Below, piece after piece: positions 1,278 to 49,717 of a DNA stretch of 62,216 nt (position 1 is its first letter; each line of letters begins with the position of its first letter). The translations under genes and the position numbers were made by a program. The notes beneath the pieces are model-generated. The model made no database searches and had not been told where the DNA came from. It saw only the letters and a list, made by a program, of their open reading frames with translations. This stretch comes from an uncultured Bacilli bacterium (lineage in GTDB: Bacteria; Bacillota_I; Bacilli_A; RF39; UBA660), in contig CALVRN010000006.1 of NCBI GenBank assembly GCA_944358675.1, positions 1-62,216 on the forward strand. The letters run 5' to 3'.

Positions 1278-2177
1278 TTAAAGTAAACTACCTATTTTTC
1301 TTTTAATTAATTTTTTTTCTTGACAATTATTAATAGTTATTTCATTTTCTTTTAATAAATCTTCAAGCTGTATATTTCCTAATAAAACTTCATTGATTTT
1401 TAAAATTATATTATCCTTATCGTTATTAGTTCCATATAAATATTTATTAAATAGTTTTTCCGCCTCTAAAATAGAAATAATACACATGGATAATTTAGTC
1501 TTCTGATAGAGTGATAAATTTGTATTTTTATAGCTATTTATTGCTTTAAATAATCTTATCAATCTTAATTTCTCATTAGTTTTTAAAGTTTCATAATTAT
1601 TATCTACGTATAAAGCAGTTAATTTATCAAAAAATATAGGTAACACTTCACTGTGAATATAATTATTTACTCCATTATTAAATTCTAGTTGGGAATGTAC
1701 AATTTCATGAGCATATATTCCTGGTGTTAATATAGATAATTTATTAGTAATTACAAATTCAGTAAATATAAGTTTTTCTATTTCTCCGTTAACTCCTAAA
1801 AACATAGGGTTACAATAACCACCTTCAAATCCTAATGTATCATCAGATAGTATTGGAATATTAAATGGGTCAAGAGTAGTCAAATAATTATTAATTAAAT
1901 CTATAAATGAATTAAAATCCATTTCTTTGAATTTACTAATTATTTCAAGTTTTTGTAATAAATCATAAGGTATAAAAGGTATTGATGTTAAATCAAAAGA
2001 ATTATTCAAAAACGGGAGTTTTCCTTTGTATATTAGCTCGTTAAAATCATCATCAGATAACTGTGATAGTCTAGGTTGTTTTAAATCTTGTAACATATCA
2101 GCAATATCTAACAAATCTGAAGTTAAAGATATTGGTTGAACTTCATAATATGATTTACTTTTAAAACACTTTTTCAT
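1278..2177 (-). CDS. Putative zinc metallopeptidase (HEXXH plus downstream E)
   Basis: YAHEIVH motif followed by SEVLPIFF, a gluzincin-like arrangement; GGAG RBS. Confidence 0.6.
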   Translation of the reverse strand: MKKCFKSKSYYEVQPISLTSDLLDIADMLQDLKQPRLSQLSDDDFNELIYKGKLPFLNNSFDLTSIPFIPYDLLQKLEIISKFKEMDFNSFIDLINNYLTTLDPFNIPILSDDTLGFEGGYCNPMFLGVNGEIEKLIFTEFVITNKLSILTPGIYAHEIVHSQLEFNNGVNNYIHSEVLPIFFDKLTALYVDNNYETLKTNEKLRLIRLFKAINSYKNTNLSLYQKTKLSMCIISILEAEKLFNKYLYGTNNDKDNIILKINEVLLGNIQLEDLLKENEITINNCQEKKLIKRKIGSLL

Positions 2178-2288
2178 AGCACTATTCTCCCATTTATTAA
2201 AATTTTGCTTTATATACTATCACTATAAGTTATTTTTTTCAATAGTTTTTTTTGATTTGTACCAAAATAATTATATTTTATGAAAGTA

Positions 2289-2567
2289 TTACAGCTTTAC
2301 TTTGTAAAATTGATTACGCACCTTATCAACTTGTAACAATCTTTTTCTTACATCTTCATTATCAATATAACTATCATAAAACAACTCATCAGGTTTCATA
2401 TTAAAAGCACGAGCAATTAATAAAGCATTTTTATATGATAATCGTCTTTTATTATTTATAATCTGCCATACAAAAGGTTTAGAACACCCTAAAGCATTTG
2501 CTATATATTCATAGGTGTATTTCTTTTCTTTCATAATAGATTTTAATAATTGAAAATTAACATTCAA
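2289..2567 (-). CDS. XRE-family HTH transcriptional regulator
   Basis: TYEYIANALGCSKPFVWQIINNKRRLS HTH pattern; TTG start with AGGAGG RBS. Confidence 0.85.
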   Translation of the reverse strand: MNVNFQLLKSIMKEKKYTYEYIANALGCSKPFVWQIINNKRRLSYKNALLIARAFNMKPDELFYDSYIDNEDVRKRLLQVDKVRNQFYKVKL

Positions 2568-2602
2568 TCAGTTTTCCTCCTTTCTAAAAAAGGTAGTTAT
2601 TA

Positions 2603-2664
2603 GTCATATATGACGTCGACGTTATACAAATAAAAAAGTACAATTTAATTAGTCGTATATGACT
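2603..2664. promoter_or_regulatory. Pair of palindromic operators upstream of first XRE copy
   Basis: GTCATATATGAC (2603-2614) and AGTCGTATATGACT (2651-2664), 49 bp apart; the same pair recurs at 3020/3068. Confidence 0.7.
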
Positions 2665-2708
2665 TGTAAATAACGCACAAAATAACATGAAAGGTAGGTA
2701 ATACTTCC

Positions 2709-2933
2709 ATGAATAAAATTACAAATCAAGATAGAGTATATGTAGCTCGTAATCTTGTACATTACAGAAAAATCAAAGGATGGACACAAGAACAACTAGC
2801 TTTTGAAGCTCATACGACAAATAAATGTATTAGCGATTTAGAACTTGCTAAAAGAAACGTAAAATTAGATACAATTTCTAAAGTCGCTAAAGCATTAGAT
2901 GTACAACTATCAGACTTAACAAAAATAAACTAA
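2709..2933 (+). CDS. Small XRE HTH regulator (controller C-protein-like), copy 1
   Basis: KGWTQEQLAFEAHTTNKCISDLELAKRNVKLDTISKVAKAL. Confidence 0.9.
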   Translation: MNKITNQDRVYVARNLVHYRKIKGWTQEQLAFEAHTTNKCISDLELAKRNVKLDTISKVAKALDVQLSDLTKIN

Positions 2934-3019
2934 TTACTACCTAATTACATTATATCAGATTTATTAAAAGTAGTAATTTTTTTATTGCAAAATGTATAAA
3001 AATTATATCTATCTAATTA

Positions 3020-3081
3020 GTCATATATGACGTCGACGCAACGCAAATTAAAAAGTACAATTTAACTAGTCATATAAGACT
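3020..3081. promoter_or_regulatory. Pair of palindromic operators upstream of second XRE copy
   Basis: GTCATATATGAC (3020-3031) and AGTCATATAAGACT (3068-3081), same 49-bp spacing as first pair. Confidence 0.7.
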
Positions 3082-3122
3082 AAAATAACGCACGAAACAA
3101 TGTGAAAGGTAGGTATTTTTAT

Positions 3123-3350
3123 ATGGCAAAATTAACAAACCAAGACAGAATATATATAGCTCGTAACATTTTGCATTATAGGAAAAGTAAAGGGTGGACG
3201 CAAGAACAATTAGCCTTTGAATCTAACTCAACAAATAAATGTATTAGTGATCTAGAACTTGCTAAAAGAAATGCGACAATAGATACAGTATCCAAAGTAG
3301 CTAAAGCCCTTGGTCAAAACTTATCAACAATATCAAAGCCAGTAAAATAA
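3123..3350 (+). CDS. Small XRE HTH regulator, copy 2
   Basis: Paralogue of 2709-2933; start moved to ATG 3123 because it aligns with the copy-1 start and follows the AAAGGTAGG RBS. Confidence 0.9.
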   Translation: MAKLTNQDRIYIARNILHYRKSKGWTQEQLAFESNSTNKCISDLELAKRNATIDTVSKVAKALGQNLSTISKPVK

Positions 3351-3362
3351 TTCTACTGGCTT
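3336..3362. terminator. Hairpin between convergent XRE and mob genes
   Basis: AAGCCAGTA ... TACTGGCTT inverted repeat. Confidence 0.55.
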
Positions 3363-3367
3363 AAATC

Positions 3368-4636
3368 TTATAAACTAAAATCATCTTTATCATATTCCAT
3401 ATTCATTTGATTATAATAACTAATATCTGCATAATCAAACAATTCTTTTTCACTATCAGTATCTTTAGCAATATCATAAATATCATTACTATCAAAGTCT
3501 TTATTGTCATAATAATCTTTTATTTCTTCATTTGTGGCTTTTTGAACTTCTTTATTACCGATTATGAGTAAATGTCTAAAAAACTGCTTTATAGCCTTAA
3601 AAATGGCTTTTAAATAAGAGATAAGTTTTTTATTTTCTTGGTTCAATTTTTCATTTCTATTATGCAAATATTTAATTTCTTTTTTAATATTATCATTTTC
3701 TTTTTGAAGATATTGATAACTTTGGGTATATGTATCAACTTCATTATATACTTTCTTTAAAGCAGGTTGAATTTCCATAATTTTTTTACTTTCAGAAATA
3801 ACCTTATTCATACTGTCGAATGTATCTTTTTTAATTTTAACATATTCTTTATCAAATAAGGTTTCTTTATTAGTTTTCATTTTATTATCTAAATCGCCAA
3901 TAGCAGTTTCTAATCGTTCATTCCTAATATCTAATTTTTGACTTAATTTTCTAGTAATTTTTTTATATTCTTTAATGTTAATGTGCTTGTTATCACTATT
4001 TTTAATACCCCTTTCTAAATCAAAACCTTTATCAGTTAGTCTTTTATGGTATTTGTCTTGTAGTTCGCTTAAATGTATCTTATCTTTAATATAAGCCTTT
4101 TTTGAAATGGTATATTTTTCACGTTTTGCTCTTTTGTCATATTTTCTAATCAAAGGTACTACCACACAATGAATATGTGGTGTTTTTTCATCCATGTGAA
4201 CAACAGAGTGTAGTACTTGCTCTTTAGTATAACCTAAATCTTAATATACAAACTCCATACAAGTATCAGCCCATTTTTTAATATCATCTTTGCTCATTCC
4301 TTTAAAAAAATCGTTAGTTGCTGTGAATAATAGTTCATCAGCTACTACATTTTTAGAACGATCAAGCATTTGTTTAAAAGTTCGTTTCCTATCGGCTCTT
4401 TCATGTTTCATTCTTTCATCATGTTCCTTTTTATATTCTTTAGTAAGTTCATAAAACTCTTTAACATATTTTTCATTTAAAGGTACTAGCTGAATATTAT
4501 TTTTAGATAATTCTAATTTTATATCAGGGTTACTATTATATGCTTTTTTCTCACGCTTATTGTGTGAACCAATTTGAGCTAAATCAGATAGGGTATATAT
4601 TGGTTCACTTCTAAAGATTGCATAATTTAAACTCAT
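3368..4636 (-). pseudogene. mobV: MOBV (Mob/Pre) relaxase interrupted by a single in-frame TAA at 4241-4243
   Basis: The 131-aa and 275-aa ORFs are in one frame: EFVY*DLGYTKEQVLHSVVHMDEKTPHIH; N-terminal HNKR motif, HxDExTPHxH motif, coiled-coil C-terminus. Confidence 0.9.
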
Positions 4637-4696
4637 TTATCTACCTCTCTTTCTATTTTTTAAACAAAAAAACACCGTATAGGTGCAAATGTATAG

Positions 4697-5926
4697 TTAT
4701 ATATCTTTTTCGGTTAAAACTCCATTTTTTTCGGACAACAATTTTATTACATCTTCCGTGTTAATCTTCTTTTTTAAATATTTTTCATATAATTTCAATA
4801 AAACATTAGTTTCTATTATTAATGCATTATTTCGTTTAGCCAAATCTATCTGATTTTGATGAACTTCATTTCTTTCTGAAATTTTCTTATTTCTTTGGTG
4901 ATTTATAATCAATAAACCTTTTATATTTTCGGTAATATTCATTTCATTAATTTTATCAAAGTAATTTTGCACATGTACATCCAACTGTGAAACATTTTTA
5001 TTTGAAATAGCTTGAGAAATTCCTTTTATTTCTCCAACAAATGTAATGTTATCTTTCTTAATAAGAAAATCTTCTTTTTTCTCATCCACAAATTTTGAAG
5101 AATCATTGTCCAATAAGTCATCTAATATTTTCATTACCACTTTAGCTAGTTCATCACCAGTTTCATACAAAACCTTTTTATATTCATTATTTTGTTCTAA
5201 TTCAATATCTAACTCCGAAATTTCATCATTTATTTTTTTTATTTCATTAATTTTTTCAAGTTTTGCTTTCTTTAGTTCATCATCGTTATAAAAGCTCAAT
5301 TCAGATACCCAATCAGGAATTATCCTATTTTGTTTTTTATTTGGAAATATATAAGATAGGAAACTATTTATATGTTGTGGACTTTCAAAAATATTTAATG
5401 TTGTTAAAATAATATTATTTAATTTAATAGTAGTAATTTTATTACTAGCATTGGACTCTGTTAAGATAGAAAAATCGGCAAACTCTGTTTTTTCAAAATT
5501 AAAGTCAGATTTAAACCCTAAATTGTTAATAATAGTGGTATTTTTGCTATATGAAATTTCAATGCAGTAAAACTCAAACAAATTTTTTTCAATAATTTCA
5601 AGCCATGTTGGAATTATGTCTTTCATTTTAGTGTTTCCACTATAAGTTCCATTAATTTTTTTTTCATAACTATATGTACAATTTTGGGGTAAAACAATTA
5701 CAATATCAGATTTTTTTGCGTTGCTTAGTTCAATGGACAATGTCTTTAAATCTGAAATATTATTTAAATTACCAAATTTATTTCCTTTCCACATTTTTTC
5801 ATTAGACAAATCAATAATGTTAGTATCATAATTGTCAAATGATTCAAATTCCTTTAGCTCTGATATTTTATACTTTTCTTTAAATTTCAAGAGGTCGTTG
5901 GCATTATATGTTATTATTTGTTGCAT
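4697..5926 (-). CDS. Hypothetical protein with coiled coil and C-terminal PD-(D/E)xK nuclease-like domain
   Basis: EDFLIKKDNITFVGEIKG...VSQL fits the restriction-endonuclease-like D...ExK...QL pattern. Confidence 0.6.
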   Translation of the reverse strand: MQQIITYNANDLLKFKEKYKISELKEFESFDNYDTNIIDLSNEKMWKGNKFGNLNNISDLKTLSIELSNAKKSDIVIVLPQNCTYSYEKKINGTYSGNTKMKDIIPTWLEIIEKNLFEFYCIEISYSKNTTIINNLGFKSDFNFEKTEFADFSILTESNASNKITTIKLNNIILTTLNIFESPQHINSFLSYIFPNKKQNRIIPDWVSELSFYNDDELKKAKLEKINEIKKINDEISELDIELEQNNEYKKVLYETGDELAKVVMKILDDLLDNDSSKFVDEKKEDFLIKKDNITFVGEIKGISQAISNKNVSQLDVHVQNYFDKINEMNITENIKGLLIINHQRNKKISERNEVHQNQIDLAKRNNALIIETNVLLKLYEKYLKKKINTEDVIKLLSEKNGVLTEKDI

Positions 5927-45648: not shown

Positions 45649-46022
45649 ACAAGTATATGTTTAGCAAAAAAAAATATACATAAAAAGCGAACATTTTACC
45701 TTTCGCACTTACAAAATATCCATCAATTTCAAAAAAACAAAAAACGTAAAAATCAAAAAAACAAAAAAACAGAAAATTTAAAAAAAGTTATTTTAATCAA
45801 AAAACAAAAAAAGAAAAGAAAAATATAAAAACTATAAAAAGCATTATAAAATAAAGGAAAAAATCAAAATAAAAAAACGTACAGAGGACACCAATATTTT
45901 AAAAAAATTAAAAATCACAAAAACGTAAAACTTTACAAAATAAATTTTTTTGAATTTTCCTTTAAAAATAAAGGACTGTCAAAAGCCACTGAAAAAAGTT
46001 TTAAAAAAACGAACATTTTCTA

Positions 46023-46051
46023 TTGACTCAAGCTATCTAGCGGTATATAAT
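46023..46051 (+). promoter_or_regulatory. sigma-A promoter of nrdD with possible NrdR box in spacer
   Basis: TTGACT-17-TATAAT; spacer CAAGCTATCTAGCG partly matches the NrdR consensus CACWATATATWGTG. Confidence 0.6.
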
Positions 46052-46077
46052 CAAGTTAGAAAATATGGGAGGTACTT

Positions 46078-48375
46078 ATGACAATTGAAGAAGAAAAATT
46101 AGATTACCTGACTGTTATTAAACGAAGTGGTAAAAAAGTAGCTTGGAACGGTACAAAAATCGCTCTAGCTATTAAAAAGGCTTTTGATAGTCTAGAAAAA
46201 GATGAAGAAAATCATTATTCTGAAAAGGATGTAAACAAAGTTTATAATGCTGTTATTAAACACATTGAAAAAGATTATAAAAATGAAGAAAAGATCAAAA
46301 TTGAAGCAATACAAGATTTAATAGAAGCTGAACTTCAAAAACAAGGTTATCCAGATGTATATAAAGCATTTGCTGATTACCGTGAAAGAAGAAACATTTC
46401 AAGACAAGTTTTCTTTGGTGAAAAGAAACAACACAAATTTTTAAAAGCTCTAGAAAGCTTGGGACTAAAATCTGCATCTGAAGTAAATGACAAAAGGGAA
46501 AATGCCAATGTTGATGGTGATACAGCTATGGGTACAATGCTTCAGTATGGATCTACAGTTTCTAAAGAATTTGCCAAAGCATATTTAATGAAACCAAGAT
46601 TTGCTGAAGCTCATGATAATGGTGACATTCACATTCATGACATGGACTTTTTACCAATGGGAACAACAACTTGTTGCCAAATCGATTTAAATAAATTATT
46701 CAAAAATGGCTTTTCAACAGGACATGGTTATTTGAGACAACCAAAAGACATTATCAGTTATACAGCTTTAGCCGCTATAGCTATTCAAGCAAACCAAAAT
46801 GATCAGCACGGTGGTCAAGCCATCCCAGCCTTTGATTATTATATGGCACCAGGTGTTCTTGCAACTTTCAAAAAACAATTAAAACAAGCAATTTACGATT
46901 ATCTTGATTTAACTGATTTAGAATACTATATAAATATGGATAGAGTAGCCAAAGAAATCGATAAAATTAAAACTATTGAAATTGACTTAAGTATGTTTGA
47001 TCCATTCACAAAAGATTCAGAGCAAGTAAAAAGGTTATTTAAAAAAGCCTATGAAAAAGCTTATGAAAAAACCGATAGACAAACATATCAAGCTATGGAA
47101 GCATTTATTCATAACTTAAATACCATGCATTCAAGAGCTGGTGCTCAAGTTCCATTTTCATCAATTAATTTTGGAACTGATACATCACCAGAAGGAAGAA
47201 TGGTTATGAAAAATTACTTGTTAGCCACTGATGCTGGATTAGGTAATCATGAAACTCCAATATTCCCAATATCAATATTCAAAGTAAAAGAAGGAGTTAA
47301 TTATAATAAGGAAGATCCAAACTATGATTTATTTAGATTAGCTTGCGAAGTGTCAGCAAAAAGATTATTTCCAAACTTCTCATTTATAGATGCTCCATTT
47401 AATCTAGAATATTATGACCCAAATAATTTTGAAACCGAAGTAGGTTATATGGGATGTAGAACAAGAGTTTTGGCAGACATTACATCAGATTATCCAGTAA
47501 CCCCAGGTAGAGGAAATCTATCATTCACATCTATTAACTTACCAAGATTAGGTATTAAACACGGAATTGTCAGTGGAGAAACAGATTTAGATGGCTTTTT
47601 CAAAGAATTAGAAGATTTAATGGACTTGGTAAAAGATCAATTACTCGAAAGATTTGAAATTCAATGTTCAAAAAGAATATACAATTTCCCATTCTTGTTA
47701 GGTCAAGGTGTATGGATGGATAGTGAAAAATTAAAACCAAATGATAGATTAAGAAAAGTCTTAAAACATGGCACATTAACAATAGGGTTTATTGGTTTAG
47801 CTGAATGCTTAAAAGCTTTAATAGGTAAACATCATGGAGAAAGTGAAGAAGCACAAGAATTAGGATTAAAAATAATTGGATTTATGAGAAAGAAGTTAGA
47901 TGAATACTCTAAAGAATATAATTTAAATTTCTCATTAATTGCAACCCCAGCTGAAGGTTTATCAGGTAGATTTACTAATATCGATAAAGCTATATATGGA
48001 AAAATAAAAGGAGTTACTGATAGAGAATATTACACTAACTCATTCCATGTACCAGTTTATTATAATATATCAGCTGTCAAAAAAATACAACTTGAAGCTC
48101 CATATCATGCCTTTACTAATGGCGGACATATTACATATGTTGAATTAGATGGTGATACAGCTATGAATGTTGATGCATTTGAACAAATAATAAGAGTTAT
48201 GCATGATAATGGTATTGGTTATGGCGCAATCAATCACCCAGTAGATAGAGATCCAGTATGTGGTTATACCGGTGTTATTGGTGATTTTTGTCCGGGATGT
48301 GGACGTAAGGAAGGCGAAGGCGTTCCAATGGAAAGAATAAAAAACGCAAGTTTAAACACTTGTGGTGGAAGATAG
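46078..48375 (+). CDS. nrdD: Anaerobic (class III) ribonucleotide reductase, large part lacking the glycyl-radical loop
   Basis: ATP cone VIKRSG, IHIHD, TTCCQI, YMGCRT, ATPAEGL, YYTNSFH, DPVC/CPGC; no RxxGY motif before the stop. Confidence 0.95.
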   Translation: MTIEEEKLDYLTVIKRSGKKVAWNGTKIALAIKKAFDSLEKDEENHYSEKDVNKVYNAVIKHIEKDYKNEEKIKIEAIQDLIEAELQKQGYPDVYKAFADYRERRNISRQVFFGEKKQHKFLKALESLGLKSASEVNDKRENANVDGDTAMGTMLQYGSTVSKEFAKAYLMKPRFAEAHDNGDIHIHDMDFLPMGTTTCCQIDLNKLFKNGFSTGHGYLRQPKDIISYTALAAIAIQANQNDQHGGQAIPAFDYYMAPGVLATFKKQLKQAIYDYLDLTDLEYYINMDRVAKEIDKIKTIEIDLSMFDPFTKDSEQVKRLFKKAYEKAYEKTDRQTYQAMEAFIHNLNTMHSRAGAQVPFSSINFGTDTSPEGRMVMKNYLLATDAGLGNHETPIFPISIFKVKEGVNYNKEDPNYDLFRLACEVSAKRLFPNFSFIDAPFNLEYYDPNNFETEVGYMGCRTRVLADITSDYPVTPGRGNLSFTSINLPRLGIKHGIVSGETDLDGFFKELEDLMDLVKDQLLERFEIQCSKRIYNFPFLLGQGVWMDSEKLKPNDRLRKVLKHGTLTIGFIGLAECLKALIGKHHGESEEAQELGLKIIGFMRKKLDEYSKEYNLNFSLIATPAEGLSGRFTNIDKAIYGKIKGVTDREYYTNSFHVPVYYNISAVKKIQLEAPYHAFTNGGHITYVELDGDTAMNVDAFEQIIRVMHDNGIGYGAINHPVDRDPVCGYTGVIGDFCPGCGRKEGEGVPMERIKNASLNTCGGR

Positions 48376-48387
48376 GAGGAAATTAAA

Positions 48388-48555
48388 ATGAAAGCAGATG
48401 AAAAAAAAGTAGGAGAAGGAGTTAAATTCGAAAGAATTAGAAGAATTACTGGTTATTTAGTAGGAACTACAGATAGATTTAACAATGCCAAAAGATCTGA
48501 AGAACATGATCGTGTAAAACATAGTACTGCTGGTCTTATGAAAGCCGCTAAATAA
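48388..48555 (+). CDS. Separate 55-aa NrdD glycyl-radical segment MKADEKKVGEGVKFERIRRITGYLVGTTDRFNNAKRSEEHDRVKHSTAGLMKAAK
   Basis: RRITGYL and DRVKH NrdD C-terminal motifs; own AGGAGG RBS 8 nt before ATG; TAATG overlap with nrdG. Confidence 0.9.
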   Translation: MKADEKKVGEGVKFERIRRITGYLVGTTDRFNNAKRSEEHDRVKHSTAGLMKAAK

Positions 48556-49106
48556 TGCAAATACGTTTAGCCAGCGACTTACAACCAGATAGTATAGTCG
48601 ATGGACTAGGAATAAGAACCGTCATTTGGACTCAGGGGTGTAGCCATAATTGTGAAGGTTGTCACAATCCAACCACCCATGATTTTCAAGGCGGCTTTTC
48701 TGTAGGTGTAGATGAAGTAAATAAAGAGTTAGATACTCTTTTGGGCCAGCAAGGCATCACCTTATCAGGTGGTGATCCGATGTTTCAAGCTAAAGCCTGT
48801 GCTAAAATAGCCAAACATGCCAAAGAACTTGGTTTAAATGTTTGGTGTTATACCGGCTTTACTTATGAAGATGTACTAAAAAGTAAAGATATGATGGAAC
48901 TTTTAAAATATGTTGATGTTTTAGTTGATGGCAAATTTGATATTAAAGAGTTTAGCTTAAACCTCGACTTTAGAGGTTCTAGAAATCAAAGGATTATTGA
49001 TGTTCAAAAAAGTTTAAAAGAAGAAAAAGTTGTTCTAATTGATAAATACATGAAAGAACGTACTCATGTGATTGAAGTTCCAAGAAAAAAACATGTATAC
49101 ATATAA
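48555..49106 (+). CDS. nrdG: Class III RNR activating enzyme
   Basis: SIVDGLGIR, CSHNCEGC radical-SAM motif, SGGDP, FRGSRNQR. Confidence 0.97.
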   Translation: MQIRLASDLQPDSIVDGLGIRTVIWTQGCSHNCEGCHNPTTHDFQGGFSVGVDEVNKELDTLLGQQGITLSGGDPMFQAKACAKIAKHAKELGLNVWCYTGFTYEDVLKSKDMMELLKYVDVLVDGKFDIKEFSLNLDFRGSRNQRIIDVQKSLKEEKVVLIDKYMKERTHVIEVPRKKHVYI

Positions 49107-49114
49107 GGAGAAAT

Positions 49115-49717
49115 ATGAATAAAGAAGGATTAAGAAAATTAAGCTATGGTGTATATCTTATAAATACAGTAAATAGTGGCTGTGTTGTAAACACATTAAT
49201 TCAAGTTACAAATGATAAAGTAATAGTTGCTATAAATAAAGATAACTACACCAATAAAATGTTAAAAGAAAACAAAAAATTCAATGCCACAGTTTTGACA
49301 AAAGAAACTGATATGAAGGTTATTCAAACATTTGGTTTTACAAGCAGTAAAGATAATGACAAATATAAAAACTTCCAAATAGAAAAAGATTCCAATAATA
49401 TTCCTTATATAAAGGATCACATGGCATCTTTAATCGAATGTGAAGTCATAAACAAAATAGATTTAGATACACATACCATATTTATTGCAACTGTAACAAA
49501 TACTAAAAATCTATCAGATGAAGAAGTAATGACATATGATTATTATCACAAAGTAAAAAATGGTGTAACCCCACCAAAAGCTCCGACATATGAAAAACCT
49601 AAAAAAGGTTATAGATGTCCAATTTGTGGTTATATCTATGAAGGAGAAAATTTACCTGATGATTTTGTATGTCCAATCTGTGGAGCTCCTGCTAGTATAT
49701 TTGAGAAAATAGAATAA
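49115..49717 (+). CDS. Flavin reductase domain fused to rubredoxin
   Basis: LSYGVY, THTIFIA, MTYDYYH; CPICGY...CPICGA. Confidence 0.92.
   Translation: MNKEGLRKLSYGVYLINTVNSGCVVNTLIQVTNDKVIVAINKDNYTNKMLKENKKFNATVLTKETDMKVIQTFGFTSSKDNDKYKNFQIEKDSNNIPYIKDHMASLIECEVINKIDLDTHTIFIATVTNTKNLSDEEVMTYDYYHKVKNGVTPPKAPTYEKPKKGYRCPICGYIYEGENLPDDFVCPICGAPASIFEKIE

Follow-up and report, generated by a model that had tools for sequence, protein, structure and literature searches.

How can a class III ribonucleotide reductase gene that stops short of its glycyl-radical loop encode a working enzyme? The question is raised by a locus in a 62,216-nucleotide stretch of DNA from an uncultured Bacilli bacterium of the gut (GenBank assembly GCA_944358675.1, contig CALVRN010000006.1, positions 1 to 62,216, here called the window), in which three consecutive plus-strand open reading frames (ORFs) encode an NrdD large chain, a 55-residue small chain and the activase NrdG. 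Sequence comparison and modelling together indicate that the locus very probably encodes a working two-chain class III reductase, the product of an evolved split. A prior interpretation made from the letters of the DNA (the sequence-only reading) had proposed that Gly22 of the small chain serves as the radical glycine in trans, and we infer the same, because the split enzyme is the only reductase found, both of its pieces are under purifying selection, the small chain docks in a structural model, and free-standing copies of the small chain occur in phages.

An NrdD encoded in two pieces

The features that define the split are as follows.

46078-48375, plus strand: nrdD large chain, 765 residues, with ATP-cone, catalytic barrel and zinc-ribbon cysteines, without a glycyl-radical loop
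48310-48339, plus strand: large-chain copy of the junction segment, EGEGVPMERI, residues 745-754
48340-48372, plus strand: extra tail of the large chain, KNASLNTCGGR, without counterpart in fused enzymes; most relatives have cysteines here
48373-48375, plus strand: large-chain stop, TAG; the small-chain ribosome site, AGGAGG (48374-48379), overlaps it
48388-48555, plus strand: small chain, 55 residues, with junction copy, RRITGYL loop, DRVKH stretch and variable tail
48409-48438, plus strand: small-chain copy of the junction segment, VGEGVKFERI
48555-49106, plus strand: nrdG, radical-SAM (S-adenosylmethionine) activase, TIGR02491 at 158.8 bits (cut-off 126.1)

The large chain passes from its CPGCGR zinc-ribbon motif into EGEGVPMERI and then through 11 more residues to the stop, its C-terminus reading CPGCGRKEGEGVPMERIKNASLNTCGGR. 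The ATG of the small chain at 48388 lies 8 bases past AGGAGG, in frame 1 like nrdD and 12 nt from it; the Gly22 codon (48451-48453) falls inside RRITGYL, with DRVKH downstream, and the terminal TAA overlaps the ATG of nrdG as TAATG. The sequence-only reading had described this small ORF with its own ribosome site and its coupling to nrdG, a junction segment present in both genes, and an NrdD of 765 residues that lacks the radical loop. Each of these descriptions is borne out: the ORF lies where it was placed, the two junction copies are identical at 22 of 30 bases, and the large chain ends at position 532 of the 562 in the Pfam NRDD profile.

Profile searches assign the two chains to complementary parts of one protein. 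In Pfam NRDD (PF13597), positions 1-532 are accounted for by the large chain (E 3.6e-192) and positions 532-562 by the peptide (E 9e-08, 31.6 bits against a cut-off of 26.2), while NCBIfam NF005497, a model of 746 positions, matches the large chain over 3-714 (1035 bits, cut-off 764) and the peptide over 710-744. Against the NrdD of Prevotella copri (8P23), large-chain residues 12-744 align to residues 8-705 (E 7.8e-185) and peptide residues 14-45 to residues 707-738. Because the profile and 8P23 alignments divide cleanly at the same place, the cut can be placed between the zinc ribbon, just past its second CxxC, and the buried radical loop. The ATP-cone occupies large-chain residues 12-106 by Pfam, and the MGCRTRV loop with the radical cysteine, C460, aligns to its counterpart in 8P23.

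The residues expected of a catalyst are kept. All 22 split large chains compared have the catalytic cysteines C199 and C460 and, at the zinc site, C728, C738 and C741 without exception, and 22 columns of the small chain, Gly22 included, are invariant across 22 sequences. The earlier statement that the metal site is retained holds for the three cysteines and fails at the first of the four zinc-ligand positions of 8P23, which is Asp here (DRDPVC...CPxC; 48259-48300, residues 722-741); the same Asp stands in the printed fused relatives of the subfamily, except L043 (DRDAIC). Many split large chains end in a Cys-x-Cys or Cys-Cys tail, and some of the peptides also end in cysteines.

Set beside the solved single-chain class III NrdD enzymes (Prevotella copri 8P23, phage T4 1H78 and Thermotoga maritima 4U3E), the locus has the same order of domains (ATP-cone, barrel, zinc ribbon, radical loop and C-terminal stretch) and the same adjoining nrdG. 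It differs in that the protein is cut between zinc ribbon and radical loop, with the glycine on a separately translated peptide of 55 residues, and in that the junction segment is duplicated, each piece carrying an extra terminus that is unseen in fused enzymes. Of the marks of a class III NrdD, the catalytic barrel and the adjoining NrdG are present, and the radical motif is not on the same chain. Judged by its sequence, the system is a class III reductase in all tested respects except this one.

Conservation of the split layout

The peptide is found in 20 of 25 genomes of the genus (the window's own, G000, and 19 of 24 other species), always in an open frame of 55-70 residues; the same draw yielded five matches outside the genus, in frames of 614-796 residues. 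A search of these relatives for the two-gene layout found large chain, stop, ribosome site and peptide in all 20 loci, with a spacer of 7-21 nt. The stop of the large chain is TAG in 19 of them and TAA in L021, and TAGGAGG is kept in 17, with L013 and L014 reading GGTAGG. The five genus members without a peptide match comprise three with an E. coli-like fused NrdD, one with none and one with a weak match only. The three fused chains (L027-L029, from G015, G001 and G004) belong to another subfamily, with CxxC...CxxC and RRTCGY; it looks from their sequences as if the split nrdD had there been replaced by a foreign gene.

Beyond the genus, a sample of the family was drawn at about one genome per genus (201 genomes, G000 included), and 108 of these have a match: 78 in frames of 54-76 residues, 27 in frames of 783-827, two cut by contig ends and one weak. 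All 21 split genomes fetched from other genera have an adjoining large chain, with spacers of -1 to 39 nt and stops of TAG or TAA. The sequence-only reading had noted that the two ORFs of the window share a frame across the TAG and had kept read-through as a formal alternative. This is contradicted by the relatives, where peptide and nrdD do not share a frame in 8 of the 20 loci of the genus, nor in 12 of the 21 from other genera; since the frames differ in those 8, the making of one chain by read-through is impossible there.

The stop itself is secure. Contigs of three other studies (X16 record 10, X6 record 20 and X10 record 3) cover 48373-48375 without change or indel, so that no sense codon appears at this position. 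Together with the conserved layout, these contigs uphold the earlier view of an evolved split rather than a point mutation or a read error. One of the covering contigs comes from an RNA library and spans the end of nrdD, the peptide and nrdG. A joint in one X6 DNA contig that skips 270 bases (48159 to 48430) was set aside as another organism or chance, because only 20 letters support its shorter side.

Purifying selection acts on both pieces. In 190 same-genus pairs, the ratio of nonsynonymous to synonymous differences (pN/pS) is 0.14 in the core, 0.20 in the tail of the large chain between CPxCGR and the stop, and 0.27 in the peptide; with synonymous differences close to saturation, these values are upper estimates.

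The only reductase found

The split nrdD is the only nrdD in the window's own assembly. PF13597 finds only the split locus in G000 and in three single-contig relatives (G009, G012 and G210), and in the fourth, G236, the split locus plus one orphan small gene, so no full-length nrdD, whose absence the sequence-only reading had wanted checked in relatives, was found in these five. PF02867, which represents the class I and II enzymes, matches none of the same five genomes; as a control, class I/II reductases were detected by it in 12 of 14 genomes. The pattern recurs in a record titled Acutalibacter caecimuris strain M00118 (G586), whose genome has only a split nrdD and no PF02867 match. Among four other genomes with Clostridia-type split loci, two add a fused nrdD and two a class I/II enzyme.

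Model of the complex and proposed mechanism

A two-chain docking model of large chain and peptide, of the kind that the sequence-only reading had suggested building, places the peptide in the barrel beside the radical cysteine. Built from alignments of our own, it scores 0.75 against 0.01 for the best of three controls, a mark that 58 of 80 solved complexes and 2 of 110 mismatched pairs attain; at least 94% of contacts are shared between runs, and the partner has a predicted local distance difference test score (pLDDT) of at least 75. The modelled peptide contacts residues 459-461 of the cysteine loop as well as residues of the inner barrel. Peptide residues 12-17 rest against the beginning of the zinc ribbon (large-chain residues 722-727), as does the equivalent strand in single-chain enzymes, and peptide residues 9-12 are paired with residues 746-748 of the large chain. 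Numbering in this last pairing runs in opposite directions, so the two junction copies are modelled as neighbouring antiparallel strands. The model thus suggests that the junction copy kept by the large chain is a clamp for the peptide.

The mechanism that we propose takes its docking, activation and activity steps from known class III chemistry. The 55-residue chain, with the Gly22 loop and the C-terminal stretch that in single-chain enzymes wraps the barrel, would be translated from its own ribosome site on the same operon and dock non-covalently, its loop entering the barrel beside Cys460 while the junction copy of the large chain clamps its N-terminal strand onto the beginning of the zinc ribbon. 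NrdG with S-adenosylmethionine would abstract a hydrogen from Gly22, on either the free or the bound peptide; the docked loop would pass the radical to Cys460, and catalysis would then proceed as in ordinary NrdD. A detachable loop is plausible because the radical domain of P. copri NrdD is highly mobile, according to the available excerpt of PMC11226230.

Oxygen destroys glycyl-radical enzymes by cleavage at the radical glycine. In the two-chain enzyme it would cleave the small chain at Gly22, after which the fragments could leave and a new peptide bind, at a repair cost of 55 residues rather than 820. We put it at about even odds that a small radical carrier on a chain of its own allows a cleaved peptide to be exchanged for a fresh one. 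Such swapping would explain the extra copies of the small gene in phages and some genomes, and phages that supply additional small chain would keep deoxynucleoside triphosphate synthesis going.

Small chains apart from nrdD

The orphan small gene of G236 (L032:1869-2060, minus strand) is set among phage-type genes: a DNA invertase-like gene is 0.3 kb away and a RusA-like gene 2 kb away, and neither nrdD nor nrdG is in the vicinity. Orphan small-chain genes in such phage surroundings, here and on viral contigs, encode 44-70 residues. A search of IMG/VR found 567 stretches that encode a relative of the peptide, of which the best 80 loci were examined (L083-L162). In 72 of these 80 best matches, a selection that favours small forms, the loop is in a frame of 47-166 residues, the ORFs themselves having 44 residues or more, and there is no NrdD core in the locus; 44 of the 72 have at least 2.5 kb on both sides, again without nrdD. 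The remaining loci comprise three fused genes, four with a core nearby and one without the motif by pattern. Neighbours in four of five loci tested belong to terminase, endolysin, integrase, RusA, replication or exonuclease families, and in the fifth, L083, only methyltransferase and endolysin families matched. The phage peptides begin a few residues ahead of the same GxGVxFERI segment as the cellular small chain and keep the radical motif.

Small genes also outnumber or stand apart from large ones in some cellular genomes. Ten were checked, nine chosen for an orphan small gene together with that of L217, and nine of the ten have large chains that end at profile positions 531-547; the tenth, titled Roseburia, has only fused genes. 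Three genomes (G594, G599 and G600) hold two to four small genes per complete large gene, with four in G594 and three in G600. The large chain of G592 (titled Bilophila; L236) runs to profile position 547 with no adjoining small gene listed, and the only small gene found in that genome, on another contig, resembles the phage copies L154, L155 and L159. To judge from these sequences, the partner of this large chain may be unlinked or phage-borne.

Two further sets of phage records bear on the same gene. Eggerthella phage EL753P1 (L047, OP172808.1 2039-12169; locus 1703-5137) has an nrdD of 952 residues with a split-type tail, followed by an ORF of 102 residues of unassigned role and then by a radical piece broken over two frames at the radical motif, where a sequencing error, decay or something else could account for the break. 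In INPHARED 17 records match, and two of them, H1 and H3, were opened; H1 is a fused NrdD on an unverified 5.9-kb record. For five Clostridioides phage records in that set, the matching features carry the annotations nrdD and nrdG.

A separate family of about 90 residues

The same loop is found behind an unrelated N-terminal domain of about 50 residues in 14 genomes of other families in the class sample (L049-L062). The resulting proteins have about 85-95 residues; two examples are given here.

L054:2782-3051, plus strand: member of the family of about 90 residues
L049:2964-3224, minus strand: member of the family of about 90 residues

Full-length nrdD is also present in 13 of the 14 carrier genomes, and in the seven loci with neighbours listed none of the small genes adjoins nrdD or nrdG. 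Among database proteins of 49-158 residues, 5228 clusters match at E <=0.001, a size range that takes in the mini peptides as well; where named, these are called "hypothetical protein." Pfam and NCBIfam have no model for the family beyond the NrdD C-terminus. The predicted fold has a mean pLDDT of 68.5, with a beta-alpha-beta-beta N-domain at pLDDT 74-81, and Foldseek returned no PDB match to this model at E <=0.001. On the evidence of sequence, the family is a candidate GrcA-like spare part for NrdD.

Origin and spread of the split

Both junction copies are present in every split locus whose junction was printed, whether from the genus, the family or the wider set of prokaryotes, while a single copy with a short link from CPxC to FERIRRITGY is found in 24 of 24 printed fused chains. 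Clostridia-type split loci have a longer large-chain tail. The simplest origin suggested by these sequences is a tandem duplication in which stop, ribosome site and start came to lie between the copies. No intron, intein, endonuclease gene or any ORF lies between the pieces in the window, the genus or the other genera, whose spacers are those given above. The shared duplication signature of the split loci argues for one origin, which would have been followed by vertical and lateral spread among gut anaerobes. A tree of the core (37 rows, quick method, trait columns removed) does not confirm a single origin: four changes of state are needed, only one of them forced by well-supported branches, and the approximately unbiased (AU) test of a single split clade is borderline (p 0.058). 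A split gene could plausibly become fused again through a deletion between the repeats.

How far the split extends depends on where it is looked for. Among 401 genomes sampled across the class, none outside the window's family showed the mini form. A scan of prokaryotes at one genome per species, restricted to the 80 best peptide matches and so biased to small forms, gave 40 loci with an adjoining large chain, 21 more with an NrdD core in the locus (19 of these listed as split by a second script, most with overlapping frames), 13 with a small ORF and no core within 3 kb, and 6 fused. Titles of records with split loci include Oscillospiraceae, Lachnospiraceae, Ruminococcaceae, Hydrogenoanaerobacterium and Acutalibacter caecimuris strain M00118, and further Holdemanella, Fibrobacter, Treponemataceae, Desulfovibrio and Anaerobiospirillum, although some of the records are bins and their titles may be wrong. 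G+C in these wider loci ranges from 0.26 to 0.64.

An even sample of the class of the Acutalibacter genome gave matches in 81 of 300 scored genomes, 8 of them in frames of 56-84 residues and 6 in frames of 91-104, with adjacency checked only for G586 itself. Most matching genomes of the window's family thus have the split, which elsewhere is the less common form. Four loci titled Holdemanella biformis, Anaerobutyricum and Lachnospiraceae (L202, L205, L211 and L214) have nearly the same small chain and large-chain tail, a likeness that suggests either recent lateral transfer of the split nrdD operon between families or binning errors.

Relation to known systems

To our knowledge, only pyruvate formate-lyase has a spare-part protein among glycyl-radical enzymes. 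The examples are GrcA/YfiD of E. coli and Y06I of phage T4 (PMC8683613 and PMC13450708, in the excerpts available), and a 2021 paper, within the same excerpt of PMC8683613, asks whether other glycyl-radical enzymes have spare parts. As in those systems, the NrdD peptide is a small free-standing protein with a radical glycine, has phage-borne versions, and would presumably be activated by the activase of the parent enzyme. Unlike GrcA, as far as that protein is described there, it matches only NrdD models in Pfam and NCBIfam and not the C-terminus of pyruvate formate-lyase, and it is shorter (55 residues, against 14.3 kDa for GrcA in PMC8683613). GrcA backs up an intact pyruvate formate-lyase, whereas the window's own genome has no full-length nrdD, and the peptide is therefore an obligate subunit and not a backup. 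The closer analogue of GrcA is the family of about 90 residues, in genomes with intact nrdD.

Reductases split in other ways are also on record, among them the class II NrdJa/NrdJb of Pseudomonas aeruginosa and the class I NrdA-a/NrdA-b of Aeromonas phage Aeh1 (PMC3267527, available part), as are phage nrdD genes interrupted by introns, inteins or homing endonucleases (PMC3653736, available part). The present system resembles them in that one catalytic chain comes from consecutive ORFs whose products must assemble. The first two belong to other classes, and the interrupted phage genes owe their break to mobile elements, of which the 12-nt spacer of the window has none. The present system differs from all of them, as they are described in those parts, in that the cut isolates exactly the radical loop and the small piece circulates alone in phages. 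A full-text literature search, which did not extend to subscription journals or supplements, turned up neither an account of an nrdD divided from its radical peptide in this way nor one of a spare part for NrdD.

The sequence-only reading had guessed that short proteins annotated as NrdD might already be in databases. They are: among database proteins of 30-97 residues, 8000 of 8000 scored candidates pass E <=0.001, and some are named anaerobic ribonucleoside-triphosphate reductase. New here are the split in records titled Clostridia and other gut anaerobes, including a named strain, the small gene alone in phages and prophages, and the unannotated family of about 90 residues.

Alternative readings

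If the enzyme has two chains, the split may or may not be of use to the cell. It is possible, though we hold it at somewhat less than an even chance, that the peptide of about 50 residues is a consumable cofactor of anaerobic DNA-precursor synthesis, swapped after oxygen or radical damage, that temperate phages carry its gene alone to boost or take over the reductase of the host, and that the family of about 90 residues plays the role of GrcA for intact NrdD. If true, this would make NrdD the first glycyl-radical enzyme outside the formate-lyases with a spare-part system. We give a similar weight, again falling short of even, to a neutral accident that became locked in with no benefit for repair or regulation, the small genes of phages being leftovers of decayed nrdD. 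Such an accident would have precedent in NrdJa/NrdJb and the Aeh1 NrdA-a/b pair, split without known benefit in the available part of PMC3267527, and would sit well with the mixing of fused and split forms on the core tree, with an NrdG that is the same in both forms, and with the small number of split-sized frames (8 of the 81 matching genomes) in the class of the Acutalibacter genome.

Decayed leftovers would not be expected to look as the phage genes do, however. These are intact ORFs with the motif kept and with very different flanks and G+C, set amid terminase, lysis and integrase genes, and the 44 viral loci with sufficient flanks have no remnants of nrdD within 2.5 kb. The genomes that keep two to four small genes per large gene, and the separate family with the same loop alongside intact nrdD, likewise speak against a mere accident. 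The extra small genes of prophages and genomes make the plausible idea of a cheap replaceable part more attractive; they fit it without deciding the matter.

Two readings that deny a two-chain enzyme fare much worse. Recoding of the TAG, its read-through, or a frameshift could in principle join the two ORFs of the window, which share a frame 12 nt apart, into a single full-length NrdD and make the pair an annotation artefact. We consider this very improbable: beyond the differences of frame described above, the pieces lie -1 to 39 nt apart in the family and as much as 178 nt apart in loci of the wider scan whose large chain reads as NrdD, split-locus stops in the wider set may be TAG, TAA or TGA (L197 has two in the same frame), and a ribosome site and ATG precede the peptide in all split loci compared. 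TAG ends 14 of the 52 long frames in the window and is therefore an ordinary stop in it. A programmed read-through with fixed stop and kept frame was rejected, as stops vary and frames differ. Equally hard to credit is a broken gene or an assembly error, decaying in an organism that lives on salvaged deoxynucleosides, for although the genome is small (1.2 Mb), host-associated and known from a metagenome bin rated 85% complete, the layout is that of 78 of 108 matching family genomes, pN/pS is 0.14-0.27, three studies agree at the stop, catalytic residues are invariant, nrdG is intact, and close relatives show no frameshifts or catalytic losses.

Several points weigh against a working two-chain reductase. 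The case consists of sequence comparison and a model; the contig from the RNA library could derive from DNA, and is no proof of transcription. Most of the genomes are metagenome bins, and the finding of a single reductase comes from genomes rated 85-95% complete; salvage of deoxynucleosides is, formally, an escape from the argument that the enzyme must work. Since P. copri 8P23 aligns so closely (at the E value given above), the docking model may recall solved single-chain NrdD structures and so report likeness rather than binding. Nothing in NrdG appears special to split systems: the 21 split and 14 fused loci compared in the family resemble one another in its length (about 171-191 residues) and in its C-terminus, the pattern search having given no nrdG for L071. 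The proportions 72 of 80 among viral loci and 61 of 80 among genome loci are not frequencies, as both sets were selected as best matches.

If the two-chain reading is right, these loci represent a natural class III reductase in which the radical loop is always a separate small chain, and the sole source of DNA precursors found in some genomes. They would offer a ready experimental system in which to ask whether a radical loop works in trans and whether it can be exchanged, and they suggest how strict gut anaerobes, uncultured small-genome Bacilli and Clostridia among them, cope with exposure to oxygen. The small chain would also be a very small phage auxiliary gene (about 150 bases), one that is overlooked or marked as a fragment in current annotation. 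Split-type nrdD genes should be annotated neither as truncated nor as pseudogenes.

Neighbouring features

The remaining features lie at either end of the operon.

46023-46051, plus strand: promoter-like site ahead of nrdD, TTGACT-17 nt-TATAAT, scoring 11/12; suggestive only
46068-46073, plus strand: GGGAGG ribosome site of nrdD
49115-49717, plus strand: fusion of a flavin reductase and a rubredoxin-like domain, by Pfam matches, directly 3' of nrdG

Taken together, the promoter scan does no better than chance (23 sites against 23.9 expected), and the promoter and terminator scan found no good site on the plus strand between 47410 and 49734. The gene after nrdG was considered as a fixed partner and rejected, because a flavin reductase-rubredoxin gene follows nrdG in only 4 of 19 same-genus loci; it is probably a neighbour and not a fixed part of the system. 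Its product could be an electron donor for the activase or a protein of oxygen defence. At the other end, about 370 nt of very A-rich sequence (45650-46020), with no ORF above 43 residues, separate the minus-strand upstream gene from the promoter-like site of nrdD.

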